This document shows, one piece after another, positions 1-20,000 of a stretch of DNA of 20,000 nt (its first letter is position 1; the number at the start of each line of letters is the position of its first letter). Location of the stretch: the NCBI GenBank assembly GCA_000934665.2, contig KZ538595.1, positions 45,062-65,061 of the forward strand, written 5' to 3'. The translations under genes were made by a program, and so were the position numbers. This DNA comes from Catajapyx aquilonaris (lineage: Eukaryota). The notes beneath the pieces were generated by a model. The model did not search any database and was not told where the DNA came from. It was given only the letters and a program-made list of their open reading frames with translations.

Positions 1-247
1 ATGGGTTCATCTTCAAACTTGGATGCCACCTCTTTGTACTCTGATGAGTTTGAATTGAGTGGTATCAACTGCAAACCTCCATCCGTATCTTTCCAGTGGC
101 TGGGACGACGAACTTCTTGTTTTGGGCCACTTGTGCCCACCTCAGTGCGCCGCACATCCCGAACCTGACGTGTAGCCATGTCAGTTTCCTTCAATTTAGT
201 AAAATCAATAATGCTTCCAGATTCACCCCCTTCGTGGTGCATCATGC
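1..247 (-). CDS. PARP12-like gene, coding exon 7 (end of WWE3 plus start of PARP catalytic domain), truncated by window edge
   Basis: Strong acceptor ttttttcttgtag at 248; open frame MMHHEGGESGSIIDFTKLKETDMATRQVRDVRRTEVGTSGPKQEVRRPSHWKDTDGGLQLIPLNSNSSEYKEVASKFEDEP. Confidence 0.87.
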
Positions 248-3200
248 CTACAAGAAAAAAGAGAAACTTGCAAATATTATAAATGTGCATAAACAAAAGG
301 GAAGGATGTGACCATGCCAGACGTAATAGAGATGATAATATGTCAGCTAAAATTGGCCATAGCAGGAAGTAAGTCATGCCCCTCCAGTGTATACCTCATC
401 AGGTAAAATAATATTAAAGCTGGAAACATCAACCTTTACACAAAATAATCCCTCCCCAATTAAGGGTGCTGCTAATTACCAGTACAATTTAAAATACATG
501 CCTGAAGGGTGTTTTACAAAATCCTTCTCAATCTTCTCAGAGTCGGTGAACTCGACCCAACGAGAACCATCTTTAAATTCCCACTGCACTCGAGTGGAAG
601 GCAGAGGACGCCTCCTGACTGCAACACTCCCAAGCAGGTCACCAGAGGTCACCTGATCCATCATGTTGAGATAGACAACGCGATCAGGATAGTCCAGGTG
701 CACTTGCCCGGCAGGATCCTTCTTGAATGCAGCTTCCAGTTTGCATCCATCACGCGGAGGATACATCTCCCACTCGTCATTGTTGGAGCTGGAGTGGTAC
801 CAGCGCCAGTTTGAGGGATGGGCTGAGGTCAAGCGACGCAGCTTCAGTTCGGGCTGGTCAGGTGACCTCAACACCATTTTCCCATAATCTGCTTCCCACT
901 CAAAATTCTTAAGGAGGCTTTTCAGTGGGTCGATCTGCATGCAGGAAAGTAATCAATTTTAGACAAACAGTATTTGATTTGATACAAATTGGGCTTTTTG
1001 TCTGTAAATCAGAGCGCTACAATAAACATAAATTCGTATTACGTGAACTTACATTAGGAGTGGCATGGACCAATGGAGGCAGCTTCTGCATATTAACAGA
1101 CACTTGCGTAAAGTGATGCTCCATGTGCGAGTCCTGATGATCCTTTAGGTTGACCCAAAGTGACCCATCTTGGCTTGCTTGCCACAGGTAGGGTCGACTG
1201 CAGTGCACCATGGAACAGGATGCCTCTGGACAGACGCCCTCACTCTGAAAGCTGTGGCAGAGTACGGCCTGCTCTGATGGATACGGAGGGGGTAACTTGG
1301 AAAGATCCATTGCGTCATCCACAAGGGCCTCCAAAGGCAGCTCCATGCAGCTGAAGTGGGCAACGCCCTTCTTGCTCTCAACAAACACCAGCATCCAGGA
1401 GTGGTCATCACTACCAGATGACCGTGGGGTTTCTGTAGCTGAAATAAACACCATCAACATGTCAGTAGGGCAGGACGCACATGGAGAGCACAGTGCAGCC
1501 AAAAAGCAATGATAGTTTTCTTTGGTGCCGCAAAGAAACATGCATCTCATTCCCTGACTCCAGGGCCCTCTTCTCATTTAAATCAATTATGGACTGGCAA
1601 AGGTTATTGAAAATGCAGTAGGTCACCTGCTCGGATTGTACTTATGATCCTGTCCGTACCAGAATTTTCATCCGGCCTGGCACGTTCCTTCCGGCCAGGC
1701 TTATTTTTCTTCTTTCTCTGGCGTTTTTCTTTCTTAGTGGTGCTCGTGGTGCTGGTCTCTGATTCTTCACTTTGGTCTGACGACCCGTCCCCATTTTTGC
1801 CAAGCTCCTCTGCAGCTGTGGATGCGGGTTGAGCCTCAGCAGTTGGCACAGAGCTCACAGGAGTAGTTGGAACCTGCAACTGACAGAAGTGACTCACAGG
1901 TCACTACTAAAAAGAAATACTGGCAGCTACTTACATTTAGTGCTATCATATATAGTAATACAACATAAAAAATAAGTAGTGTGTAATATGCTAACGATAA
2001 TAATCAACTGACTGCTCAATTCATCTCTACCCACAGTTTGGAATGTTAATAAAACAATTACAAATTACTGGTACAACTGGCTAACCACAAAATTGTAAAA
2101 CTGCCAAAAATGTGCAATTCTTATTAGCAGGTATTGCATTAGCCCAACACCATAGATTTTAACCTGTAATCTGTGGTGCAGCTGTCTCTAAGGATTATTC
2201 TGACTTACATCAAATTCATTGTGACGCAGTTTGCACTCCCAGTCGCGGCACTTGCGCTCCTTCCATGCAGGGCACACCACCGTAGCAGTCCTGGCCGGTG
2301 CGTAATGGCGGTACAGGCACTTATCAAAAGGCTGAAATCACACTGTCATTAGTGAGTTGCAAGAATCTGCACAGACTATCTCAAGTGAGTACGCTGTAAC
2401 AATGACCTGAATGACTGAATGGATGCTCTCGCACACAATACGCTTTCTTTGCCCATGCTGCTGCATTATAACATTGCATGAGGTAAGGCACACTGTTTAT
2501 AAATATCACAATTAAAACCAGAGGTCCATCATTTGAATCTGATTGTCAGTGCATATTATTTGCGTACCAATTTTACAGTTCTGCTACATCAATTTCACGA
2601 CCTTCTAAAGTGCAGGATTCAAAACTGTCACTGCCTCAGAATCGCAAATCTTGACGTGCGAATCTGAATCAGTTGCCTGCATTCAATAAAGAACACGATT
2701 ATTCAATTTACCGTAATTAACAAGTAAAAAGTGATGTGGCAATGTATGCTAAGGTTTATCAGCTTGTTTGTGAATCTCGATGATAGCAAGTCTGCTAACC
2801 TGCACAGAGCTGTGGCTTTAAAAGTGCGAATAGGTTTCAAGTATGTGAAAAAATACTTCTCCTGTAAGCAATATCTATCTACTGGTACAAAGTGCAAATG
2901 AAATTGGTATGCAGCTGCACAGTTGCATGGAGTAGTGCATATGGAGTGGGGAATCCCCTTACACATATCACACCCTTTCACAGTGCAGTTATCAGCTTTC
3001 ACCCTCTTTCATTCTCAAACCATTCCGCTCAATCAGAGGGTCTTCCATTATATAACAATCCATTTGTCACTTGGCTTTGCACCAATTTCAAATTCACAGG
3101 AGGGAACGTCAATTCAAAGTGTAATATTCTACTCTGAAAAGTGCGTGTGGAAGTTCTAATGTTGCGATACTGAATTGTGAATAAAATCTCATGAATGCAC

Positions 3201-5698
3201 TGACCTTAAAGCACCTGCCAATCATAAACCACTTGCAGTCGCTAATGCTCTTCTTAAGTGTCACAGTTGTGCCGTCATCAGGGGCACCCTTATTGCTGGA
3301 GGCCTCTGCACCTCTGGGCCCTCCCTTATCGGCGTCTCTGCCTTCTCCTTGGTCCCCACCGGCACCTTCCCTCTTGGCTGGCCTGCTTCCCCTGGCGTCA
3401 CCTTGCATCGCGTCTCTTTCTGCCAGCCTCTTTCCAAGCTCAATCAGCTGCCTGGCGGAGATGGTGTTGTCCTGCACTTCTTGAGACAATGGCCTTCCTT
3501 GCCGAGGCATGTTTCCACCTCTGCCACCCCTCTGAGGCCTTCCTTGCCCTTTCTTCCCCTTGTTAGTGGCAACCTCATCACTCTCTCCAGAGTCATCCTC
3601 ACCACTGCTTTCCTGCTCCTTCTTTGCTGACTTGCGGGGCCCTTTCTTTGCTTGAAACCCGGTAGCAAATTTCTCATGCCTCACAGACTGTTCATATGAT
3701 GGGGGATTTTCTGGGTGGGGTTGGGGGTTCATGGGATGTGGTTGTGGAGGATGCCCAGGGTGCGGGCCAGTTGGATAAGCCTGCTGGGGGTGGGGCTGCT
3801 GTGGGTAGGAGTAGGGTTGGCCAGGGGGGTAGTAAGGGGCAGCGTATTGGGGTGGTGGAGGAGGAGGAGCAGCAGGTGGGTAGTGCTGAGGAGGAGGTGC
3901 GTATCCATGATGTGGAGGATACGCCGAGTAAGGAGGAAGGGGGGAAGGCTGGTACGGGCCTTGATGGCTGCCGCGACCTGAGTCATCCCCGTGGTGGTGG
4001 TGGTGACTGAAAGATAAGCCACAGCGAATATTAAAATCAGCATCAGAACCCCCTCGCATTAGGTTGAAACTGAAGCTTAGTAAGACAACAGTTTAATGGC
4101 CAATCCATTTCCAAAACTCGGCCACCTCAATAGGCATGAACACTGAATGAATACTGTTTCACATCCACGTATAAATTCATGCAATATGATGTAAATAAGC
4201 CTGCTTCAAGCTCAGACTTTGCACTGACGAGGCAGCTGGATTCCAGCCCAGAGCACATCAGCAGTACTGACTAGAAGGATCTGAACCGTTAAAATACATG
4301 CAGATATTCTGATAACAAATGCATCATATGGGGAATGTCTTCATTTTTAAAATTAAAATCGGCACACCAGAGATTAATGAGTAGTTACAAATAAGTAAAT
4401 TACGAGGATTTTTCTAAACTGACGCAGAAACTCCGACCACTTGAATCGCGACAAAATCAACATTTTCAAAAATTTCTCTTGAACCCAATTTTGGTCCAAA
4501 AAATTTGGAAAATAAAAATTTGATGTCACCTCATACGTAGCTGCTCATGTTAAAATTTTGAAAAACATCTGAGATGTGAGAGCACATGGCACCAGGTGAT
4601 CTGGCGTGGAATGACCCATGGCTGATATATGCAGAGCTTGCAGCATTAGCCAATGCGTGACATTGATAGGATTTGTCTGCTCTGTGCCAAACACTGACTA
4701 ACTTCTCCTTCTTCGTGCATGCAGGGAAAAAGTAGCTGGCACCTTTGTGCTGGTGCTGTACAGTACGACTGACACTGCATAAGCGGGCAATCAGATTGAA
4801 AATTATGAGTCCCGCACGAGTGCTCAAATACATTCCTCTCCACAACTGTCCACAATAAACAGCATTCCAAACTGTGGTAAATTAATAATGTCACTTTTCT
4901 AATTTTCATTTGATGATTCCCCCTCGTATGTTGGCAACTTGAATAACCATCGTAGGCATAGGGGTGGGGGTCAACTGACCATCACAGCGCATTCTGGCAT
5001 TGAAAAGGCATTTCCTTGGGAATTTTCCTTATTGCCAATAAAATATTATGTAACCATATTATTTTTAAACTGATTTGAATCCCCGTTAGTAAAGTTGTAA
5101 TTAGAAAATCACGAAGAAGAGGGAATTTTTCTGAACATTCGGCAACTATGCACAGGGCCAAAAGAAAGCTGGGATTTTGCTGGAGGGCTTCCTGCCAGTA
5201 CCATTATCAGTTCTGGCATCGTCTATAATCCTGTCTGGTATGCAGACTCTGTAGGTATGAAACCGTGAATAACAACAATGTCAACACAATAATGGACATT
5301 TCCAGGCATCCAAACCATCTTCTCTAAAAACTATATAAAACCAGTGTAATACACAGTGACGGACTGAACAATAACATTGCGAATTATGTTATTCTTTAAA
5401 TATAAAAAAATGATTATCCTGCAATGTAGATTTTGCAAGAAATGAAACGTGGAGTCAGCTGGGCATGGTCACCTCCACAGGGCATCACTTTGGACACTTA
5501 CACTTTCACGTTCACATACCGCACCGATGTTCCTCCTCCTCTGGCGTTGCTGCTGGCCCCCCTTTTATTGGCTGCTCCTGGCTGATAGTGCTGCCCACCA
5601 CCAGATGATGATGGAGGAGGCCTATTATTATTCTGCCCCTTATTATTATTATTTGCAGCTCCTCCTCTCTTATTGTTTGGGTCTGACTTGGCCGGCAT
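1..5698 (-). CDS. PARP12/ZAP(ZC3HAV1)/TIPARP-like CCCH zinc-finger, WWE and PARP-domain protein (mono-ADP-ribosyltransferase family); 3' end outside window
   Basis: Seven phase-consistent exons: 5698-5502, 4006-3205, 2331-2209, 1873-1660, 1438-1053, 934-502, 247-<1 (2402 nt, ~800 aa). CCCH finger CHSFQSEGVCPEASCSMVH is followed by RPYLWQ, as in PARP12/TIPARP. WWE motifs: WRWYH..WEMY..LEAAF..VRRRP and WEFKDGSRWVEF..IEKDF..IDF..VRR. The last exon has PSHW..LIPLNSNSSEYKEVASKF, typical of the start of the PARP catalytic domain. Exact orthology not established. Confidence 0.88.
502..934 (-). CDS. PARP12-like gene, coding exon 6 (end of WWE1, WWE2, start of WWE3)
   Basis: ttcctgcatgcag|IDPLK...; within ORF 476..940; ends TCA G|GCATGT (GC donor, phase 1). 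Confidence 0.87.
1053..1438 (-). CDS. PARP12-like gene, coding exon 5 (CCCH finger 3 plus N-half of WWE1)
   Basis: tttatttcag acceptor (alternative at 1433, same phase); donor AAT|GTAAGT at 1052; within ORF 1017..1577. Confidence 0.85.
1660..1873 (-). CDS. PARP12-like gene, coding exon 4 (Ser/Thr/acidic linker plus basic NLS-like patch)
   Basis: gttgcag|VPTTPVSS...KKEKRQRKKKNKPGRKERARPDENS-G|gtacgg, phase 0-1. An alternative phase-1 donor at 1626 is possible. Confidence 0.75.
2209..2331 (-). CDS. PARP12-like gene, coding exon 3 (end of CCCH finger 1 plus CCCH finger 2); absent from the ORF track
   Basis: tgatttcag|PFDKCLYRHYAPARTATVVCPAWKERKCRDWECKLRHNEFD|gtaagt; 123 nt, phase 0-0. Confidence 0.88.
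3205..4006 (-). CDS. PARP12-like gene, coding exon 2 (poly-His, Pro/Tyr/Gln-rich, RGG, start of CCCH finger 1)
   Basis: Acceptor ttatctttcag at 4007; lies within ORF 3109..4059; donor AAG|GTCAGT at 3204 splits CKWFMIGRCFK from PFDKCLYRH. Confidence 0.85.
5502..5698 (-). CDS. PARP12-like gene, coding exon 1 (Asn/Gly-rich low complexity)
   Basis: ATG at 5698 with an in-frame upstream TAA; MPAKSDPNNKRGG...VNVK-V; GTAAGT donor at 5501 (phase 2) matches the next acceptor. Confidence 0.75.
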
Positions 5699-6043
5699 TC
5701 TCACTAGTTACTTTTCCTGCTTATTATTATTTTGCTCTTCTTCTCGTGGCAGCCTGTACAGGAGAAGGAAGCGGCACTGTCAGCAACGTATAAAGTCACA
5801 CTGTGAGTCATCAGGCAAAAGAGATAGTCCTTTATACTTGCGGAGAGAGTGTGTTGTTTGCCAAGTGATGCAGCAATCAGGCCACTGAGATAAGGAAGGC
5901 CCCCTCAAACGAGAGGAGGAAACGACCGCCCTTCTATATAAACAAACCTGGTCAATCGTCTGCTGCCTCTTCTTCTTGACGAGCCTCTCTTTCTATCTGC
6001 TGCTCTTTTTTTTTTTTTTAAATCATGCAACGCACCTTGGTCG

Positions 6044-6322
6044 GAGCCTTCCCATTGGTCCTCCCGCGCATTGGGACCCAACATGGCCTCCCTCCCCTCT
6101 ACGACACTCGCTCTGAGGGGATTCCCCGCTCCGAATGCCTCTCTCCGTTTGCACTCAAACTCGCCTGAAACTCATTTCCAGATTAGATTAGAGTTTAGAG
6201 CTCATCAGGCAACTTTTCATTTTCCTGATTATAATTATTATTATTGTTGGGATTGCAGGTGCTGCCATCTGGACTGCCTGGATGAAATGCCAGCTACCGT
6301 ATCCCCCGCGCAGATACGGTTG
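6044..6322. promoter_or_regulatory. Putative cis-regulatory module upstream of the PARP12-like gene (CCAAT block, AGATGGCAGCAC motif, ACCGTAT..ATACGGT palindrome), shared with 15410-15691
   Basis: Three collinear blocks are repeated at 15410-15691 with nearly the same spacing, and both copies lie 5' of a minus-strand gene. Confidence 0.5.
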
Positions 6323-6668
6323 AGCAACAGGTGTATATGATACACGTCCTCATCATTCCTCCTCACTCACCACGATCAAAAATCCGTCGCAGCGCACGTT
6401 CATGGACATTAGTCATGAAAGAAAGCGTCCCTTATTCTTATGACCAGGCCGTCACTCCGGCAATCCTGCAAAAGGTGCCTCATGTCATTTGAACCATATC
6501 GCATATTATTATTCCTATACCTGCTTTATTGCTGTCTAATTAAAATCATTAACTAGGAAAACCCTCGCGTCGCTCACATTTTTCTATGGCGCAGGCCAAG
6601 AAAACCACTCGCTTCGCTCGCCTTTTTGTAGGCCTGCGGTGTAGGGCATGTTGTTAATGATGCGCTGA

Positions 6669-6760
6669 ACGGGGGCCAATCGGAGAGGTGGTGGTAACAA
6701 TGGACGGGGGCCAATAGGAAGAGGTGGCGGCAACTATGGGGGGGGGGCGGACCAATCAGA
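6669..6760. promoter_or_regulatory. Triple CCAAT (NF-Y-like) box cluster with GC box
   Basis: CCAAT at 6676, 6711 and 6752 in degenerate repeats (acgggggccaat.gga.gaggtgg.gg.aac twice); GGGGCGG immediately precedes the third; CpG-rich context upstream of the PARP-like gene. Confidence 0.45.
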
Positions 6761-7402
6761 GGACTCATACACACAACGCAAGCATTTTAATATTGTAGGT
6801 AAGGTTTAGAAGAAAAATTCCCCTTTATATTTATACACTCATCCTAATAAAGGTCCTCGGGAGAAGAATGTCTGTAGACACATTGAAGGTGTATATTTCT
6901 GGCTGTGTTTCCAAGTACATTACACTTAAATGTAATCTCACAACTATTTTTACATGCTTGAATAATACCCTGTGTAACGACTGGTCAGTTCCAGTTGGGC
7001 CACCGCCACACCTGCAATTCAGCACAATTATTATATCTTCCTATTAACAACTTTGCATAATATCATCAGCATTCAAGTGAAACACAGTATATTCAAAAAA
7101 ATTAGTTTGGAGATCAACCAGAGCAAAAAAAAACATTGAATGCATCGTTTTATTAACAACACTTTTTTTACACTATAAAAATACTGCCATGAGAATATGC
7201 AGCATGAAACAGGTTGAAACAGCTCACGTGTTTATTAGGTTGGCAAGTGGCATTGGGATGGTAATTATGTTGGGTTACATGAAAATTTGGAGAGTAACAA
7301 TAATGGATCCCACTGCGTGATATAGTGTGACTGAAAGCTAATAAGATATAGTGCTTCTGCTTGACACACATAAACTGGATGGCACACAAAGCCTCCACCA
7401 TC

Positions 7403-8105: not shown

Positions 8106-10292
8106 CTACGGAAATGACCAGACCCATTCAGTTCTAAATGCATGGACATACTCAAGTGACTGCACTGGCCACACTTACCACTTTGCTGCAGCATTGAAAA
8201 TGGCAATATTTGAGGCTTTCAGGTGTGGGCTGGTTATGATCTTCAGAGCCAAATCCTCAGACAGCTCAGAAAACTCATCCTTTTGCATCACATGCTCAGC
8301 ATGCTGTCCAATCACCTTTGGAAAAAGCGACTGCTATACAAAATGCAATATTGATTTTCTCACACTGCACATCAGGAGCTTCAATATCACTTTCGTGGCT
8401 ATTGGGGAAGTAGCCATTTGAAATAATTTTGCACAATATTACAATGTTATTCAAGTCCTCTGATTATATTGGCTATTGAGTGGTTCTTTCTTATTTTCAG
8501 GTAGGGATTACTGATTAATCAACAAATACTCAGCAGTCAGTGCACACCTTGGGGACCATGAAAAGTACAAAATAATACTTACTTGGAAGCACGGAAGCTG
8601 CAGCTCCTCATCACCGTAGAGAGCAGCCTTCATCAGACAGTCAAGGGCATTGTCAGGTGTTAACCCATTGACGAGGTACTGTAATTTTTAAACCACCAAC
8701 TTAAATATTCACACATATAACTACTAACATAAAGGCCATTTCACAAAAAAAATGTCGCGCGGCAAACGGCGCGACTTGCGGCAAATTTTTATTTACATTT
8801 ATTGTTGCCAATTGTTGGCAACAATAAAATTTGCCGCAAGTCACGCCGTTTGCCGCGCGACATTTTTTTTGTGAAATGGCCTTAACAATGCTTAATGCAT
8901 GTAGCAGTTATCACAAAAATGAATGCTTTCAGAAATTGAAACTTCTAGAGGCAATAACTGCAGTGTCAGTGCCATCCTACCACAAAAAAGGCACATCTGC
9001 ACATTGCAAAAAAATGGCCATATTTTCTATCTAGTTGTCTGGCACGAGTGACCTTCTCCCAGTGCGCAGATGTGCCTTTATCCAATAGCACTGGACTCAC
9101 ACGGTAAAAGTCTCACCCTACCTCTCTCGTCTTGTCAGCCAGGTGTTTGATCTGAAGTTTCCGAGCCAGCTTCCACACATCCCAAGCTTCGGCCAGGGAG
9201 GACAACATCAGCTCGTCTTTGTAGATGTAGTCCAGAAGTTTCTGGAACACTCCAGGACTAGTGTATGGAATCTTCATGGTGATTGGTCCTGGTTCTTCAC
9301 ACACCTTAGCCTCCAGGACAGAACTGGACATGGCCAAAATCAACTTGTGGGCCTGGTAAAAACGCATTATTTGTCACATGTTGACTAGGCTGATTTTACA
9401 CTAATAACTTTAGCGACAAAAATTTTATCATTTCCATCTCATGGCCTGTTGTTCATTTGTAACAAGTAGTACAAGAGCGAGGAATTATTTTTAAAAAATT
9501 GCAACATGGTTCCGTTGTCATGAAAATGCTTCATCAGGTCAAAAGTAGCACTAATGAAATGGGACCCAGTTTAAAAATGGATTGGATTGATAGCACTTCT
9601 AGTGGTGCAAGAACAGCTTCGGTAGCCACGCTGCACCAGACAAAATCCAGGTTGGACGCCCACTCTGTTTGCACACTTATGCTTAGATCCAAATAACTTT
9701 GTCCTGCATGTATAGTGAGAGACACAATAAATATTCTTTCAATCCTTATCAAACTTGTATTTGGTATAATCTTATCTGACAAGTGATTTTCCTGGTATGT
9801 GATTCACAATAAGATGGCTCTTGCATTATGTTGAAAACCCACAAGGTTATTTATATCACATTTAATTCATAATAGACTGAGCATATCCCAATGGTTCAAA
9901 CTGGTCACCACATTTAAAATTACTGATGCTAATGGTCAAAAGTCTTCATGAGAAACTTTTCTTGTTCTAAGATGTTGTAGTGGGCCTTTCAGATTCGCAG
10001 TATCCTTTTCAGGCAAATGCGTAACAAAAATGCAATAATAATTAGACGGCATGTGAGAGTCCTGCATGTAGCCTACCAGAAAGGTGACGAAGCCCTCTTG
10101 TCCTTGAACAATGATGGTGGCATCGCCCAGAGCCCCAGATTTCAAGATGGAGGCAGCTCTCTCCTTCAGGGAAGTGGTGCTCTCCTGCCACCCTGCCGGA
10201 TTACCACCTCCACTTGTCCAGTCCTGCTGTGCACTAGCACCAGCCCCTTCAGACTGTGCGGCTGAACTCTCTCCTGCCATGGGGCGGGTCAT
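7403..10292 (-). CDS. BTB/POZ-BACK-PHR domain protein, copy 1 (BTBD1/2/3/6-like), ~460 aa
   Basis: Exons 10292-10077, 9352-9122, 8678-8583, 8315-8179, 8105-7403; all GT-AG and phase consistent (1383 nt). BTB signature DATIIV..AHKLILAMSSSVL..FQKLLDYIYKDEL; BACK region YLVNGLTPDNAL..FSELSEDL..IFNAAAKWAK; PHR-like C-terminus FKITFDSPLKLKEG..QLVPNLFF. Confidence 0.88.
8179..8315 (-). CDS. BTB copy 1 exon 4 (BACK)
   Basis: tttttccaaag|VIGQHAEHVMQKDEFSELSEDLALKIITSPHLKASNIAIFNAAAK-W|gtaagt, 137 nt. Confidence 0.86.
8583..8678 (-). CDS. BTB copy 1 exon 3 (3-box/BACK start)
   Basis: ttacag|YLVNGLTPDNALDCLMKAALYGDEELQLPCFQ|gtaagt, 96 nt. Confidence 0.86.
8733..8882. mobile_element. PIF/Harbinger-type MITE (150 bp) in intron 2 of BTB copy 1
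   Basis: ~57-bp TIRs AGGCCATTTCACAAAAAAAATGTCGCGCGGCAAACGGCG(C/T)GACTTGCGGCAAATTTT with one mismatch; TAA on both flanks (8730-8732, 8883-8885), matching the Harbinger TSD. Confidence 0.85.
9122..9352 (-). CDS. BTB copy 1 exon 2 (BTB core)
   Basis: tttaccag|AHKLILAMSS...LADKTRE|gtaggg, 231 nt. Confidence 0.88.
10077..10292 (-). CDS. BTB copy 1 exon 1
   Basis: MTRPMAGESS..WQESTTSLKERAASILKSGALGDATIIVQGQEGFVTFL|gtaggc; the start could be either Met. Confidence 0.8.
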
Positions 10293-11487: not shown

Positions 11488-12172
11488 TTATCGCACAAAG
11501 TACAAGTTTGGCACTAGTTGCTGGGAACTGGACATGTTGCTGAATTCAACTTCAAGGCCATTGAATGACACTTTCTCAATGCACTGTGGAAAGGTTGAAA
11601 TAGTTGTTCTGTCCCCATAGATGCGCGTCAAGGTGACTTCAATGCAGTACTCAGATCCTGCCTTCACCCTGATTGGAGTGTCAAACATCACTTTGTATGG
11701 AGCATCCAGTTGATTGTCAGCGCAAGTGAACAAAACCCTCTGCCAGGACCCATGATCTTTTACTACACAACTAAGCGATACTCTACTGTTATGACGCCCG
11801 TAATAGGAATCCCACGAATCACAATAATCAGTGACTTGTATTCCCGTGAAAGAGCAAAATGGAGGAGTCTCAACTTTGAAGTTGAAATTAAAGTTGTGAG
11901 AGGCCTCAATGTTTGTCTTCACCATGTTGAGAGAGCGGCAACAAGTCACTTCCCTCACTTTCCTCCTGGTTTCACTCTCAGTTTCCTTGGCAATCTGCAT
12001 CTTGGCAATCATCCTGAGCAGATGTGTCGTCAGTTCTTCATGGCTCACCAGCCTTGTGGGCATCACCACGTTGCTCAGTTCACTTGCTGTCATGGCATCA
12101 TATTCGAGGTGCGGTTGAAAAGGGGAAAACACCTCCTGGATGGAATCCTCTCTGGGTGCATTTCTCTTAGCC
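11488..12172 (-). CDS. BTB copy 2 exon 5 (BACK end plus PHR)
   Basis: ttattcttag acceptor, phase 2; (W)AKRNAPREDSIQEVFSPFQPH...QLVPNLYFVR-stop. Confidence 0.88.
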
Positions 12173-14564
12173 CTAAGAATAAGAGGACTTCACATGAAAC
12201 GCAACTGATTCAATCAAGTGCAATTTGTACAGGAACTTACCATTTGTAGGCGGCGCTAAATATGGTAACTTCCTTGGCCTCAAGTTGAGAAGTGGCAATT
12301 ATCTTCAAGGCCACATCTTTAGGGAGGGCAGGAAATTCTTCATCCTGCAGCACATTCTCAGCATGCTTCTCAATCATCTGGTAAGAATATGACAATGTCA
12401 AACCCTTACTTAAAACTTCAACACAGACACTAGCAGTGGCTCGAGTGGGTCGCAGTGCCAGAAGGACGCAGTACGTATCCCAATCTGATACAACTTTCAG
12501 GACAGGAAGTTGAAGTTTCACAGCCGAAGCATTCTTCGCCACTTATTTCTGTCAATCATAGGGAGTTTTGCTATCTATTTTTCCCCATGGCTTGTGCCCA
12601 ATGATCACTTCAGGCTGTGATGTTTTGTATCATGGGGTTGAAAATATGTCTTGCACCACAACACACATGTTTGTGCAAGGCAAAATTGAGTATCCCAGTC
12701 TCTATGAACTTTTTTACCTTGATGATATGCTACGGTATATTATATGTTTTGGGTGCAAAAGTTGAGTTTTGAACACTGGTTAGGATACACCTACTGTCTC
12801 TTATTCCACCAACCTACTGGATTTATTGGCACACCATTGCACCCAACCAACCCGTGCCTCTCTCTGTCCAACAGCTGGTTTATTTTATCCTTGGGCCATG
12901 AACAGGAACAAAGTATTTTCCAGGAGTGACATGTTCGCTTGGACCCACGATTTGTCTCTGGCATGCAAGGTGGGTGGCAGAGAGAAAGTGCAAGGAAGGA
13001 GGAGAGATAGGAGGTGGTGGCGGAGAAAAGTATGTGATTCCTCATGTGCTGGGTGGTGGGAGGGGTAGGAATAATATCATAATACTGTTGTGTCATGTTT
13101 TCATACCAGGATATTCCATTGGAAGTGAATGCCATTTGAACGTGGGAATCTACATGGAAGTGTGTGCCAGAATGGATGGGCTTATCATGGGTGGTCTTAT
13201 GCAACAAGATTGGGCAGCTTGGGGCAGTGCAGTGGCATGTTGTGACTATTGGTGACCCACTGGCACCAGAGATCGGTAACACATTCCTTGCAACTTAAAC
13301 TGTCTTGCAGCACTTAAAGGGTTTCTCTTTCACCTATGAGAAGCTAATTTTTAGGTAGCTTGCAAAAATAACATCTGAAAAGTCCTTGTAACAAACAGAC
13401 TACAATGAAAAAATTGCTAACTAAAATATACACCATAATTATTGGAACATAGGATTTGCTTTGTGTAGTGTATACAAGATTGCAACCTGATACCAGTCGG
13501 TGCATCACATGTGACTTACTTCAAGGCACTTCGCTTCCAGCTCATCGTCATTGTAGAACACCGCCTTCTCTAGTGACTCCAGCACATTTTCAGCTGAGAT
13601 ATTGGTGGTGATGTGCTGCAATGCACAAAAAAGAAAGTGTTAAATTGTACCTGAAGCACATTTCCCAATTTACTTGGTCAAGCTACATTGTCACGTGAAC
13701 ACACGTATACCTCTCTGGTCTTGTCAGCCAGGTGCTTCATCTTGAACCTCTGAGCCAACTTCCACAAATCCCATGTGTCTGCCATGGAATCAAACTTGAG
13801 CTCCTCCTTGTAGATGTAGAGAAGCAAATTCCGGAAAACCCTTGGACTGGTGTCCGGAATCTTCAGAGGTTGAGATGACTCTTTGTAAAGCATTCCTGCC
13901 AGAACAGAGCTGGACATGGCCAGGATGACCTTGTGAATCTGCAACAAATCATCCAAAACAGCCATGAGAAGCCATTTTAATGGGAGGATATGACGACAAT
14001 TGGCATAGCTCTAAGTAAGTGGTAGAGGTGGTAGGGGACTTCAGTTTTAACACTAGACAAGTCACCAATCTGCCTTCCCTATTTTATTGGCCGAAGTGTT
14101 GTCAAACTAGGAATCTGACAATGTGTAGAATTTATTGCAAAACCCAGTAAATCACATCAGAACAACTGATCACATGTGAAATGTCTGTCCACACTTGCAT
14201 GCCATTGAGTTAGAAATCCCATATTGAGCCGTGCACATACCTGAAATGTCTTTTCGTCTCCGTCTGTTCCTCTGACAATGACAGATGAGTCTTCAGGAAC
14301 TTGGAAGGTGAGCAGTTGCGCAACCCTCTCCGTTATGCTGTTGGCTTCATTCCATTGGGTCTCACCTGGCAGGTCCAGTTCCAGGGTTGAGTCTACCTGT
14401 CGATCAGTGTCAGATGTCCCATTGCTGGCAGCACTCCCATCACGCTGTTCTTCATGGTCACCACTTCCTCTGCCAGTCAACAAGCTGACTCCCATCAGTC
14501 CCATGTCACTCCATGGTTCCTCCTCACTTGATATTATTGACACACTACTCATCTCATCATCCAT
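11488..14564 (-). CDS. BTB/POZ-BACK-PHR domain protein, copy 2 (BTBD1/2/3/6-like), ~489 aa
   Basis: Exons 14564-14241, 13938-13711, 13615-13520, 12377-12241, 12172-11488 (1470 nt), GT-AG, same phases as copy 1 with the same 96- and 137-nt exons. IHKVILAMSSSVL..FRNLLLYIYKEEL; C-terminal YKVMFDTPIRVKAG..QLVPNLYF. Probable 5'UTR intron 14606-14799. Confidence 0.88.
12241..12377 (-). CDS. BTB copy 2 exon 4 (BACK)
   Basis: ttcttaccag|MIEKHAENVLQDEEFPALPKDVALKIIATSQLEAKEVTIFSAAYK-W|gtaagt, 137 nt. Confidence 0.87.
13520..13615 (-). CDS. BTB copy 2 exon 3
   Basis: ttgcag|HITTNISAENVLESLEKAVFYNDDELEAKCLE|gtaagt, 96 nt. Confidence 0.86.
13711..13938 (-). CDS. BTB copy 2 exon 2 (BTB core)
   Basis: ttgttgcag|IHKVILAMSS...LADKTRE|gtatac, 228 nt. 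Confidence 0.88.
14241..14564 (-). CDS. BTB copy 2 exon 1 (acidic N-terminus, BTB start)
   Basis: MDDEMSS...WNEANSITERVAQLLTFQVPEDSSVIVRGTDGDEKTFQ|gtatgt. Confidence 0.8.
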
Positions 14565-15079
14565 GGTTCAACAGTGTCCCTTGTGCAATTACAGCAGACT
14601 GGCTCCTGTGTGGTGGGAAAAAAAGCAAGTCAGAGTCGCCCATTGCACACCCCCTACGTAGGATCAGTTGATGGAGTACCCTTATATTGTCAGTCTCTCT
14701 TGGCCATTGGGCGTCTGTCTCCTCTTCACCCTGTAGCCTACTGTACAACTACATATACCATCAGCAGAGTGCCGGTCAGCGCAAAGTGTATTTAATTACC
14801 TGCGAGAATAATAAGCCAGGAATAATCTTTCTTCCGTATGTAGAGCCGGGATATGTCCACAGCAGCAGCAGCAGCGAGATGAGTGGACGCGAGTTCCCTT
14901 ATTGCCTCTAGACGAGGAGAATACTACTTGTTGCCGTAGTGTGAGACTACTACTTGTGCGATGCGGAGAGAAGTAATCAGTCAAAGTAATAATCGAACAG
15001 GCTACAACAGAATAAGGCCACACAAACAGACACGGGACAGAAACCTTCGGCAATATTCTGTGGCTTGAACAAAGAGAGA

Positions 15080-15362
15080 CCCTGGCCTGCCCTGGCCTGC
15101 CCTGGCCTGCCCTGGCCTGCCCTGGCCTGCCCTGGCCTGCCCTGGCCTGCCCTGGCCTGCCCTGGCCTGCCCTGGCCNNNNNNNNNNNNNNNNNNNNNNN
15201 NNNNNNNNNNNNNNNNNNNNNNNNNNNNNNNNNNNNNNNNNNNNNNNNNNNNGCCCTGGCCTGCCCTGGCCTGCCCTGGCCTGCCCTGGCCTGCCCTGGC
15301 CTGCCCTGGCCTGCCCTGGCCTGCCCTGGCCTGCCCTGGCCTGCCCTGGCCTGCCCTGGCCT
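15080..15362. repeat. Perfect 10-bp tandem repeat (CCCTGGCCTG)n interrupted by an assembly gap
   Basis: About 10 units before and 11 units after a 75-N gap (15178-15252); true length unknown. Confidence 0.97.
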
Positions 15363-15409
15363 TCCCGCCAGCCTGCCTGCCCACCACGGAGCATGCGCAC
15401 AGGCCGAAC

Positions 15410-15691
15410 GAGCCTTCCCATTGGTCCCCCTGCGCACTGGGACCCCAACACCCTTCCTCCCTAGCTACGCCACTCTTCCCCGTCCATAATGTCTCGGACC
15501 TTTTTGGGTTTTCCCTGCATGCACCAGGAATCTATTTACTTCGCAAAAACCGGTAAGAACTTACTGAAAGTAGAGGGATTGGAGGCGCACCCTGGTTTTT
15601 GCGGCCGATTGCTGGCTGCCGGCTGCAAGTGCTGCCATCCCAGTCGAAAAACCGAGGGAACATTATTATACCGTATTCCCAGATACGGTTG
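15410..15691. promoter_or_regulatory. Putative cis-regulatory module upstream of BTB copy 2, homologous to 6044-6322
   Basis: gagccttcccattggtcc.c..gcgca.tgggaccc(c)aaca block, tgca.gtgctgccatc block, and taccgtat..agatacggttg palindrome; NRF1-like GCATGCGCA adjacent at ~15391. Confidence 0.5.
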
Positions 15692-16465
15692 CGCATCAGG
15701 CTGCATAATGTGGTGGACCGTCTTATTAACATCACATTGCCAATATTTTCGCATGATGGTGCAACATAAAGCTTTTGCAAATAGCAGAGTAACAGTGAAA
15801 GCCTTAAGCATGTCTACAAAAACTTTGTTTATTAAAATGATACAAAAAAAAACACACACACAACACACCACAGCAATGCCATGAAATCTGGGTGTTGGAG
15901 AGTACTTGGCTGCAAAGCATTGTTGAAATTACATATCTGAATATGCAAGTAACAAACATTTTTTTCTCTAAACGAACCCTTAGCTTATTGAGGAATGGAA
16001 GTTACACACTTTTAATCCTCAGCGTAACATCTCAAGTTCCAACAGCGGAGCTAGTAAATCATTATGGCTTCGACTGTGTGACAAAATGAAAAGCAATTAC
16101 ATAATGCTGAACACCAGCTCCCTGAATAAATATCAAAATCCTGCATGATTACTGGCCAAATTTCTCCAACCTTCCCTTTGAGGCATGGTAGAACAGCTCT
16201 AGATGATCATTAAGTATTGATATTGTCAGTTTCCACAATCTAATTATCCAGATAATTAGCATTCGGGTCTTTTGCCGCTTTCACCTGATGTGTCACTGCA
16301 TTTGCACTCCCTTCTACAAGACATGCCTAGGGACATTAGAAAAGTCCAGAGGGTCCAAAATGACTTGAAAACTACCCATGAGCCCCCCTCCCTTGGGAAC
16401 CTCTCCCCTTTCCCATTTCAGTAAGGTAAAAATAAAAATCAAATAATACCACCTGCATATGATAT

Positions 16466-17008
16466 CAGTGCTCTCCGCTTTATTGGTGCCCAGGTTTATC
16501 GGGTCCCCGCATTTTTGGACCAAATCGCCAGGACCGGAATCAAATCAATGCCATCAATGTAATTTTCCCCCGCATAGCTGGTGATTTCCCCGGTTAGTCA
16601 GACCAGTTTGGTTGCTATAATGCTATTCTGTGGCTATTTTAAGACGATTTTTTAATGCAAGTAGGGCATGACTGTGACTGCACTCTACACCTGCACGGAC
16701 TTTTGTCAACATGATGTCAAAGACAAGAACTCGACAAGTGTTAGCCTAGACAATTTTTACAATGGAGTGAGAACTAAAATTACTGTACAGCACAGTACTT
16801 TGCACTTTCATGACAGTTGCATGACACAGTCACTTATTTTAGCCATCGATTTTACCTACACCTGTTGTGCAATAATTTGTGAGGATTAAAGCTGGTACTG
16901 CTGCAGTGTACTTTTTTTTGTGTTTTTTCCCCTTGGTTAATCAAACCCCCACTTTATTGGGCCAAAATGCCATGGCCCCGATGTGGTCCAAATAAGCGGG
17001 GAGCACTG
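16466..17008. mobile_element. Non-autonomous Tc1/mariner-superfamily (pogo/Tigger-like) DNA transposon, ~543 bp
   Basis: Imperfect TIRs: left CAGTGCTCTCCGCTTTATTGG, right (reverse complement) CAGTGCTCCCCGCTTATTTGG. TA follows the right end; the left flank TAT is degenerate. Subterminal repeats of the ccc.c.tttattgg type. Confidence 0.65.
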
Positions 17009-17341
17009 TACCCCATTGCGGTGAATCACTACTACCCAATTATCATAGCATCTTCTATGTTGCAGATACAGCATAAGACAACTTCCATCATCTGGTACAT
17101 TGCGTGGTACTGTACACCTAATGGGATCATATCCTAAATTTAGATTGCATGGTTAATTTAATATAGAAATAACAGTGATGATAATGATGACAATGATGAT
17201 CAGGCCAGTGTTAAGAATCAATATATTGCTTACAGACACCCCAACTAGAATGTGTGTTGTGTGACCAACTTATTCCCTACATTATTTGATCATTTTTGAA
17301 GTTAATAAGGGAAAGAGTTTCAAGTATCAGTACTTAGCACA

Positions 17342-18059
17342 TTACAACATAAAGTACAAGTTTGGCACTAGTTGCTGTTGGGGGCTGGATACGTGGCTGA
17401 ATTCAACTTCAAGGCCTTTGCATGACACTTTCTCAATGCACTGTGAAAAGGATGAAACAGTTACTGTTATTGGGCTTCTCACTCTTCTGTAATCAGGCAT
17501 GATGGAGCTGTTCAAGGTAATTTCAATGCAGTACTCAGAACCTGACTTCACTTTGATTGGAGTGTCAAACGTCACTATGTATGGAGCATCCAGTTCATCA
17601 CCAGTGCATGAGAACAAATCCCTCTGTGAGGACACATCTTCTACTACACAATCAAGCAGCACTGAACTACTGCAATTCCCAGATTGCCGATCGTATACAT
17701 TGTAATTATTGGCGACTTGTAATCCAATGAAAGAGCAAAAAGGAGGATTCTTTACTTTGAAGTTGAAATTAAAGTTGTGAGAGGCCTGAATGGTTATACT
17801 CCTCACACTGACTGTGAGAGATCGACAACATGTCAATACCCTCCCTTTCCTCCTGGTTTCACCCTCTGTTTCCTTGGAAACCTGCATCTTGGCAATCATC
17901 CCGAGCAGATGTGTCGTCAGCTCTTCATGGCTCACCAGCCTTGTGGGCATCACCACGTTGCTCAGTTCACTCGCTGTCATGGCATCGTATCGGATGTGCG
18001 GTTGAAAAGGGGAAAACACCTCCTGGATGGAATCCTCTTTGGGTGCATTTCTCTTAGCC
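17342..18059 (-). CDS. BTB copy 3 exon 5 (BACK end plus PHR)
   Basis: ctcatcctcag acceptor, phase 2; ORF 17342..18019. Confidence 0.87.
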
Positions 18060-18264
18060 CTGAGGATGAGAAGGCATCATGTGAAATGGAACTGATTCAA
18101 TAAAGTGCAACTTGCACAGTAACTTACCATTTGTAGGCAGCGCTAAATATGGTAACTTCCTTGGCCTCAAGATCAGGTTTGGCAATTATCTTCAAGGCCA
18201 CATCTTTAGGGAGGGCAGGAAATTCTTCATCCTGCAGCACATTCTCAGCATGCTTCTCAATCAT
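17342..18264 (-). CDS. BTB/POZ-BACK-PHR domain protein, copy 3 (last two exons; 5' exons lie beyond the right edge)
   Basis: Exon 4 18264-18128 (137 nt, 43/46 aa identical to copy 2) and exon 5 18059-17342 (open, ends QLVPNLYFML-stop). Intron 3 is homologous to that of copy 2 at 18265-~18510 and ~19696-19909. Confidence 0.86.
18128..18264 (-). CDS. BTB copy 3 exon 4 (BACK)
   Basis: MIEKHAENVLQDEEFPALPKDVALKIIAKPDLEAKEVTIFSAAYK-W|gtaagt. Confidence 0.86.
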
Positions 18265-18580: not shown

Positions 18581-19643
18581 CAGTGGTTTTCGAAGTGGGG
18601 TACATGAACACAATTTCGGGGGTACGCGAAAGATTTTGGGCAATAGCGTCCGCTTTCTATATTTTGTGAGAACCACGCTAATCTTTCAACAAGAATGAAC
18701 CAACTTAATTTTGAGGAAAATACAAAAAAAGGTCCTACTCATTCCTTTTCTCATTTCTTTTTGCTATTAATACGACGTAGACGTATTATACGCGAGGCAT
18801 TTTCTGACTGCTGCCATTTTCATTCAGCCCATGTGTTGAAACTCATGAAGCAACATGGCAGTGTTAACTTGAACAACTACTGCTTCTATCATTGAGCTTT
18901 GAAACGTTGTGAAGGCTTTTAAAATAAACTCTGGCTGCAGAGGCTGATCTCCCTGGCCTAAAAATTTTCGAGTCTCAACAAATGAAACTGGGGACTTCCA
19001 ATATATTTTAATGTGCAAAGTAAAATAGATGGATTGGTCAAAAAATTCCAGTTTTGGGGAAAATGTTGTATACAAGGTCGCAACTTTCATTGCTTTCCAA
19101 CACTCCAAAAATTTCAAAGCGACAGCGACAGTGGAGGCCCAGTGGACATCAGTACATGAATCAATTGTCACTATAGTTATTAGAAAATATCCTATTCGAA
19201 ATGGACATGCCATTCAATTGCGTCAGGAGTTTCAGATTTATTTACCCATCCAGAATCAGGAAGGTCATCATTGGAAGTTTGAAATTTGAAAATACCCTTT
19301 TGAACTGTTGGGCACTTGGGCTGAATAATTGGAAGACTATCCAGGGCTGGCAACTAGTACTCTGAAGTACTAACTACCTATTTGTCAAGCTGTTTTTCAC
19401 ACAAAGTAGGCTATAGGTACCGTTATTAACTCTGTGTTGAGAAAGACGTCAGGCTTAAATTGACGCCACTACTATTTTTGTCCCCAATATTAACCATAAG
19501 TGTGAAAGAAAGAAATCACACTCGTCACATTAACTGATATTTGCCCACAGTTACTGCTTATTTTCAGGTAACAGGTCAGAGTGGGGGTACAAACTGTCTT
19601 GACGTAAAAGGGGTACGCGACAAAAAAAGTTTGGAAACCACTG
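18581..19643 (+). mobile_element. Decayed, internally deleted hAT transposon (Buster/Charlie type) in intron 3 of BTB copy 3
   Basis: TIRs CAGTGGTTTTCGAAGT and CAGTGGTTTCCAAACT (13/16). Frameshifted transposase remnants on +: VKAFK../KLWLQRL (~18910), QLRQEFQIYLP (~19215), DYPGLATSTLK..TTYL/QAVFS (19335-19400), YRYRY*LCVEKDVRLKLT, and PNINHKCERKKSHSSH* (ends 19533), matching the hAT C-terminal dimerisation region. No clean 8-bp TSD. Confidence 0.8.
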
Positions 19644-20000
19644 GATTATACAATGAAATGTTAAGGTTTCAACAACCACAGCCCCACCCATTGAGAGATC
19701 AATAGCGTAACACAATCCTTGCATGTTAGACTGGTCTTGCAGACCTCTAGGGATAGGTTTCTCTTTCACCCATGAGAAGCTAATTTTTTGGTAGCTTGCA
19801 AAAATAACATTTGAAAAGTCCTTGTAAGAAAAGCAGACTACAATGAAAAGAATGCTTGCTTAAACTTACACCATAATTGGAATATAGGATTTGCTTTCTG
19901 TAGTGTATATGTCGTGAGCCAATTGTGCGCTTGGCCCAATAGTCCGCGAGTGAATTGGCAGCCGGCCAACTGTTCTGCCCCTCCAAGCCACCACCACCCC

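Follow-up and report, generated by a model that had tools for sequence, protein, structure and literature searches.

The window studied here comprises 20,000 bases of the genome of Catajapyx aquilonaris (contig C1054, positions 45062-65061; its right edge is the end of the contig). It carries three related genes in tandem, all on the minus strand and each of five exons, which encode a BTB domain, a BACK domain and a C-terminal domain of predicted PHR fold (Table 1). The joined exons of all three copies give uninterrupted frames, and the present analysis concerns the strong divergence of copies 2 and 3 in three loops of the PHR domain. The BTB-BACK module is distributed over four exons, with the BTB domain in exon 2 (Pfam PF00651; expectation value (E) 1.9e-13 in copy 2 and 4.3e-13 in copy 1) and the BACK domain in exon 4 (PF07707, E 7e-07 in copy 2), for which helices are also seen in the predicted models. 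The BTB exon of copy 3 is 95% identical with that of copy 2, and exon 5 of copy 1 shares 38% identity with exon 5 of copy 2.

Copy 3 is divided between the window and a second contig, C6554. The assembly is broken at this point because both contigs end in the inverted ends of one element lying in intron 3. The two ends match in reverse at 97/97 bases; TATA is duplicated on either side of the element, and on comparing the target sites it was found that copy 2 has the empty site. Spliced contigs are present in run X5, which comes from a second sample. Among them are three splice joints of copy 1, and a single contig links exons 2-5 and carries the letters, the gap lengths and the 3' end of copy 3; both genes are hence transcribed, with splicing as in the gene models. 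Among the X5 contigs listed, none has copy 2's own letters, and the run is uninformative on the expression of that copy. A signal peptide was considered for copies 1-3 and ruled out, given an in-frame stop immediately before each start codon and polar N termini.

The C-terminal domain in exon 5 had been labelled a PHR domain in the preliminary description, and this label was borne out. The Pfam model PF08005 (PHR) gives no match at cut-off in copies 1-3 and matches 2/7 rows of the family weakly (best E 0.008), and a sequence search of the PDB gave chance matches only. The predicted model of copy 2, however, was matched to the PHR structures of BTBD2 and MYCBP2 with Z scores of 17.0, 16.8 and 16.6, the next unrelated chain scoring 9.0; the best match was 3NO8 (BTBD2 PHR), with a root-mean-square deviation of 2.2 over 138 residues. 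It should be noted that the alignment feeding the structure prediction contained canonical PHR proteins. PHR domains also occupied the top four rows in Foldseek (E 1.8e-06), a profile comparison with hhalign gave E 2e-22 at a probability of 99.5, and the Atlas search gave a score of 0.96 to PHR clusters. A search with the family profile retrieved 31 distant proteins, with a PHR match in 21 of the 24 scanned. On predicted structure and profile similarity, the domain is thus assigned as a strongly diverged PHR domain. The family has its own cysteines near the BACK-facing end, at copy 2 positions 77 (9/9), 106 (9/9), 197 (8/9) and 203 (8/9; Phe in copy 2), possibly forming a metal site or a disulfide.

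On comparing copies 2 and 3, identity was found to fall from 91% over 267 BTB-BACK codons to 79% in the PHR strands and 36% in the three loop segments, the last being counted over 45 aligned codons that comprise the segments and their immediate flanks. The preliminary description had reported near-identity outside the loops, and its counts for exon 4 (43/46 residues) and for the middle segment (Table 1) were reproduced, as was the presence of the framework motifs that it named; near-identity at the start of exon 5 also stands, although the recount is 53-54/58, depending on the start offset, instead of 52/58. Every indel in exon 5 is a multiple of three, and loop 2 of this pair has no net indel. 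The introns had been described as alignable, which holds fully for intron 4 (14/68 bases differ) but for intron 3 over only about 500 of 1142 bases. Between copies 2 and 3, similarity did not rise above that of shuffles in the 5' non-coding region, in the 3' flank or in the central parts of introns 1 and 3; when the central, unalignable part of intron 3 of copy 2 was searched against the genome, its one match was to itself. Within the PHR region, 59/154 codons differ in amino acid, 14 of them in the densest 17-codon window (permutation p 0.008). As claimed earlier, the loops diverge faster than the introns: 29/54 bases differ in the middle loop, against 16 in the densest 51-base window of alignable intron. 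Exon-5 residues of about 140-156 and 211-217 also differ, so that the three almost unalignable segments are real but represent the peaks of a domain-wide divergence. The hypervariability of the loops between copies 2 and 3 is confirmed as a real feature. As for the few BTB-BACK differences of this pair, they are clustered (three adjacent residues in exon 4), and the ratio of nonsynonymous to synonymous change (omega) of BTB-BACK on its own synonymous divergence (dS) is about 1, against 0.22 in exons 1-4 of two other members of the family, C1992a and C1992b.

Table 1. Features of the locus; coordinates refer to the window unless contig C6554 is named
Feature	Position	Strand	Remarks
Copy 1, older paralog, 460 residues	7403..10292	-	exons 10292-10077, 9352-9122, 8678-8583, 8315-8179, 8105-7403; open frame
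Copy 2, BTB-BACK-PHR, 489 residues	11488..14564	-	exons 14564-14241, 13938-13711, 13615-13520, 12377-12241, 12172-11488; splice sites and open frame
PHR-fold domain of copy 2 (exon-5 residues 73-227)	11491..11955	-	AlphaFold model, predicted local distance difference test score (pLDDT) 86.6, and structure matches
Copy 2 variable segment 1	11911..11928	-	position of the conserved Trp in canonical PHR domains
Copy 2 variable segment 2	11782..11832	-	after the canonical Gly-x-x-x-Tyr-Gly strand end
Copy 2 variable segment 3	11593..11628	-	exon-5 alignment
Copy 3, exons 4 (18264-18128) and 5 (18059-17342)	17342..18264	-	window part of the gene
Copy 3, exons 1-3	C6554: 2879-2568, 1556-1329, 561-466	-	joined protein of 496 residues
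Copy 3 variable segment 1	17792..17815	-	exceeds its copy 2 counterpart by two codons
Copy 3 variable segment 2	17663..17713	-	3/17 residues identical with copy 2
Copy 3 variable segment 3	17450..17512	-	exceeds its copy 2 counterpart by nine codons; the model shows one helical turn
Terminal-inverted-repeat element in copy 3 intron 3, left end	19910..20000	.	right end at C6554:325-421
WWE-PARP upstream block	6044..6127	-	palindromic kappaB-like site (6117-6127); 82% over 66 bases
Copy 2 upstream block	15371..15515	-	CCAAT box and kappaB-like site (15506-15515)
Copy 3 upstream block	C6554:4088-4216		homologous to the copy 2 block

It is very improbable that copies 2 and 3 are two alleles or the product of an assembly error. 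The window does end at a contig end, and a gap of N lies between the copies. Nevertheless, a roughly doubled sequencing depth marks the places where both copies lay on copy 2, both sets of letters occur in 3/3 DNA runs, flanks and intron insertions are peculiar to each copy, and the non-coding divergence is at least 13%.

The position of the loops in the fold was read from the order of hairpins in two predicted models. A tight hairpin of strands 92-102 and 105-112 makes segment 2 begin next to where segment 1 finishes; through the hairpins 131-139/146-154 and 160-170/174-183, segment 3 and the loop 151-158 come to lie at the same end. The first PHR strand enters from BACK at the opposite end. 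The variable segments would hence lie together on the end of the sandwich that is remote from BACK; a clustering on one face, for which a check had been proposed earlier, is supported to this extent, on strand order. The loops at this end, presumably those referred to as apical, carry the best-conserved residues of canonical PHR rows (Trp in 9/11, Tyr-Gly in 9/11 and 8/11, Gly in 11/11 and Asn in 10/11). On comparing 11 canonical with 9 family rows, it was observed that the canonical loop residues (Trp, Tyr-Gly, Gly-x-x-Gly, Asn, Gly-Gln-Ile-Pro) have been lost in the family. According to a review, the structure of PHR1 shows a surface, flat and conserved, with a likely role in binding proteins (PMC4806438), and this surface may correspond to the loop-bearing end of the family's sandwich.

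Variable loops on a fixed beta-sandwich have the appearance of an antibody, and the preliminary description had called them antibody-like. The term is overstated: the fold appears not to be that of an immunoglobulin, no antibody domain occurs among the 50 structural-match rows shown, in which PHR domains lead by a wide margin, and no somatic or allelic variation of the loops was seen in the contigs, which drop rare variants. Somatic diversification of the loops, or an exchange of cassettes, resembles the present case in appearance only and is extremely improbable. No donor cassettes were found among the four paralogs tested, and the copy 3 transcript of the second sample has the gap lengths of the assembly and agrees with it at 29/32 listed letters, the other 3 being beside a gap. 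In 3/3 DNA runs from one sample, a single unbranched contig spans loops 2 and 3 of copy 2, within the same limit on rare variants.

The three copies belong to a larger family. Genome searches gave 14 exon-5 matches at 13 loci and 12 BTB-exon matches; these counts are lower bounds, so that the family has at least 13 loci. Canonical PHR genes are present on three other contigs, and a genome search with PF08005 returned the canonical genes only. Nine exon-5 sequences of the family form one clade against 22 other rows with support of 100/98, four distant loci (C6533, C823, C2362 and C656) having been left out of this tree; a quick tree of the BTB exon was poorly resolved and was not used. The best relative outside this genome was found in a profile search with E 4e-10. 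Protein searches, confined to longer proteins, found close relatives in other genomes among 0/231 and 0/21 candidates, and no orthologs were therefore available for a proper PAML-type test. Judged from sequence, the copies are members of a lineage-specific, tandemly expanded BTB-BACK-PHR family related to BTBD1/2/3/6.

A second young group within the family consists of C1992a, C1992b and C12445, the last being either a paralog or a divergent haplotype. With the segments fixed beforehand, 35/64 columns were found to be variable in the loops of this trio, against 21/110 elsewhere in the domain (p 2e-6). Most of the variation falls in segment 2 (21/32), of which the loop is rich in indels, and the least in segment 3 (5/15). 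The variable positions of the two subfamilies overlap (p 0.0095), with 3/156 circular shifts giving an equally high overlap. In C1992b, a local duplication over the exon 4/5 boundary (L049:4280-4140) has created an extra short exon, with the frame kept as judged by eye.

Rates of change were estimated with the authors' own implementations of codon models, not with PAML, and the intron calibration comes from the alignable pieces alone (759 bases). For the pair of copies 2 and 3, the models gave a dS that is lowest in BTB-BACK (0.045-0.053), higher in the N-terminal tail (0.21-0.24) and highest in the PHR framework (0.28), and the distance in alignable introns is 0.14. Much of the high dS of the PHR region lies in codons hit more than once, because codons specifying the same residue show low synonymous change (8/228 in BTB-BACK, 8/79 in the PHR framework and 2/16 in the loops). 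In the loops, 31/45 codons differ in DNA, 20 of these at two or three bases, and the nonsynonymous divergence is 0.67-0.77, or 4.7-5.4 times the alignable-intron distance. Calibrated on introns, loop omega is 5.4 (4.7 with double and triple changes allowed; p < 1e-9); on PHR-wide dS, it is 2.4-2.5 (p 0.003; 0.017 with multi-nucleotide changes). For the trio, loop omega is 1.53 with shared dS (p 0.051), and the comparison of M8 with M8a gave p 0.027. Relaxed constraint alone cannot exceed the neutral rate, and the loops must hence be either selected or older than their surroundings.

Several results weigh against selection. The loop segments of the pair were chosen after their divergence had been seen, and on the loops' own dS the omega of the pair is 1.58-1.62 (p 0.31) and that of the trio 0.58. 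A model of neutral but older loops differed from one of selection by -2.3 to +0.8 log units and was the better one in 2/4 settings. In the trio, M2a against M1a (p 0.15) and M8 against M7 (p 0.077) were non-significant, and without the poorly alignable loop 2 omega was 1.22 (p 0.52). The unalignable flanks and intron middles imply that the duplication may be older than the distance of 0.14, and older loops are plausible for the same reason.

These points bear directly on the alternative that copies 2 and 3 are old duplicates subject to patchy gene conversion, in which the loops drift and have become too different to convert, while the conserved exons and the nearby intron ends are homogenised, with no selection for specificity. 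The preliminary description had named homogenisation of the 5' part by conversion as a finding that would speak against its reading, and this was found in part: synonymous change in BTB-BACK amounts to 9/176 sites against 99/759 in introns (p 0.002), and the dS of BTB-BACK is also below that of the PHR framework (p 6e-5). Conversion of the 5' exons is the best reading of the low value, and the near-identical background was therefore inflated. Neutral loops at a distance of 0.6-0.7 fit as well as selection, the loops of the trio need a 3.6-fold higher synonymous scale, the 3' flank, 5' non-coding region and intron middles have no homology, and domain-dependent conversion has been described in zebrafish NLR-B30.2 genes (PMC4852459). 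On the other hand, the framework between the loops changes synonymously like the introns (8/79, as above), so that conversion must alternate every 20-40 codons and in two subfamilies; with so young a framework, a neutral origin would require conversion to skip each loop. Moreover, neither copy 1 nor a fourth paralog resembles any loop of copy 2 or 3 as a donor would. Patchy conversion is accordingly regarded as a serious but rather unlikely explanation.

A further alternative is that the DNA of the loops is under relaxed constraint and prone to mutation or indels, so that clustered multi-base changes and misalignment mimic an excess of amino-acid change. The fit does improve by 15-17 log units with double and triple changes, and indels abound in loop 2 of the trio. 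A site model of the pair gave an unrealistic omega of 55 (p 4e-7) driven by multi-hit codons, and it was dropped as evidence, as two sequences with such codons cannot carry it. However, omega is still 2.4 or 4.7 when multi-base changes are allowed, loop 2 of the pair has kept its net length, and adjacent intron differences number 18 against 12.8 expected. This explanation is therefore considered improbable.

Diversifying selection, as proposed in the preliminary description, is thus supported in part, by the PHR and intron calibrations (omega 2.4-5.4) and by the recurrence of the variable segments in the second subfamily, but not by the loops' own dS, and neutral older loops fit equally well. 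Positive selection for loop difference is held to be moderately probable; selection on the loops is likely but unproven, as the statistics cannot yet fully separate it from gene conversion.

A mechanism can be proposed in which BTB-BACK would dimerise and dock on Cullin-3, with the PHR sandwich pointing away and its loop-bearing end offered to substrates. The conserved ancestral surface at this end would have been released from constraint, and after each duplication selection would favour new loop sequences and lengths, giving each paralog different ubiquitination targets; conversion between neighbours would keep the BTB-BACK exons alike and thereby sharpen the contrast. On balance, the whole explanation, namely that the copies are intact, lineage-specific BTB-BACK-PHR members with target-facing loops driven apart by selection, is somewhat favoured. 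By analogy, the copies may be Cul3 adaptors with interchangeable recognition ends. In Btbd6, BTB-BACK is reported to bind Cul3 with the PHR domain pointing away from the cullin (10.1101/575910), and the PHR domain has been proposed as a substrate module (PMC1257465). Two points tell against this part of the proposal. The zebrafish Btbd6 substrate Plzf is described as binding through BTB and not PHR (10.1101/575910). In KLHL11, the BTB alpha3-beta4 loop clamps Cul3, the 3-box also having a role (PMC3597819); this loop is non-canonical in copies 1-3, and their binding to Cullin-3 is therefore not assured.

With the BBP family (BTBD1, BTBD2, BTBD3, BTBD6), the copies share the domain order and the PHR fold. 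Canonical members are conserved and number four to seven per metazoan genome surveyed (PMC1257465), unlike the expanded clade found here; the window copies also miss the Pfam PHR model, lack the conserved apical residues and have the family-specific cysteines. Fish finTRIM and NLR-B30.2 genes and the B30.2/SPRY domain of primate TRIM5alpha offer a likeness of pattern, with tandem paralogs, a C-terminal beta-sandwich and hypervariable loops connecting its strands, and in finTRIM and NLR-B30.2 genes conversion likewise acts differently by domain (PMC2657112; PMC4852459). Fold and scaffold differ, however, the copies here being PHR on BTB-BACK. In finTRIM-type families, positive selection has been shown with many sequences, and the ligand of TRIM5alpha is known, neither of which holds here. 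Expansions of ubiquitin-ligase adaptors in nematodes are said to have been described by Thomas in 2006. The nematode F-box and MATH-BTB adaptors likewise combine tandem expansion with a conserved cullin-binding part and a fast-evolving substrate part (PMC8120010; for MATH-BTB, PMC1257465), but they number hundreds of genes and dozens, respectively, against at least 13 here, and their substrate domain differs. The family is thus a divergent member of BBP and not of the finTRIM, NLR-B30.2 or F-box families. No report of hypervariable, selected or expanded PHR domains was found in the literature searched, which covered a minority of subscription papers.

Fast-changing, target-facing loops would, by analogy, be a pattern typical of defence genes, and the most likely targets would be fast-changing foreign or selfish proteins, such as those of a virus, symbiont or transposon. 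This step is proposed because of the analogy and of an upstream block held in common with a neighbouring gene. The neighbour (window 3-6000, minus strand, continuing on L012:6632-7303) has several exons and encodes two WWE domains (PF02825, E 4e-07) and a PARP catalytic domain (PF00644, E 2e-12), together with a Cys/His-rich exon and a Pro-Tyr-rich N-terminal region; it is presumably PARP12/ZAP/TIPARP-like. The genome search placed the block of 66-110 bases at three places, upstream of this gene, of copy 2 and of copy 3. It contains a CCAAT box, and a kappaB-like site lies beside each of the three block copies, both being presumed names of putative elements; one search pattern was written after the sites had been seen. 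A deletion has removed the aligned kappaB-like site from copy 2, and a different one lies some 25 bases upstream, a picture suggestive of site turnover. The neighbour and the common block are hints that favour a defence role. A weak precedent is that knock-down of human BTBD2 raised permissiveness to human immunodeficiency virus 1 (HIV-1) two- to three-fold (PMC3002306). Against these hints, copy 1 is without the block, and an equally good kappaB-like site occurs at 2948 inside the PARP gene. It is accordingly suggested only tentatively, as a doubtful idea, that the PHR domain, so far known only as a conserved module for protein binding, has been turned in this lineage into a variable recognition scaffold, the copies being NF-kappaB-inducible Cullin-3 adaptors, co-regulated with a PARP12-like ADP-ribosyltransferase, that degrade viral or selfish proteins in a paralog-specific manner.

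If this were true, the family would be an invertebrate counterpart of the TRIM5/finTRIM restriction factors built from different parts, a new recognition scaffold in invertebrate cell-intrinsic immunity, and a warning that Pfam PHR searches miss such genes. Should patchy conversion hold instead, the locus would be a neat example of gene conversion mimicking hypervariable loops. The surprise is limited in that the evolutionary pattern is already well known in other families. Natural paralogs with most of their differences at one end of the fold suggest where the binding surface of PHR domains lies, and they are ready-made loop swaps with which it can be probed.

Some minor features were observed in the surroundings. 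Downstream of the PARP gene (L012:3498-4353, minus strand) lies a gene of the 5-formyltetrahydrofolate cyclo-ligase family (PF01812, E 1.5e-13). Intron 3 of copy 3 holds an insertion with 10-base inverted ends (window 18581-19643) that is absent from copy 2; its target duplication is inexact, and it is presumably hAT-like. A palindromic high-copy element resembling a miniature inverted-repeat transposable element (MITE) occupies window positions 8732-8883 in intron 2 of copy 1, with a depth of 6000-7000 in the DNA runs. A ten-base tandem repeat surrounds an assembly gap (window 15080-15366) immediately downstream of the upstream block of copy 2.

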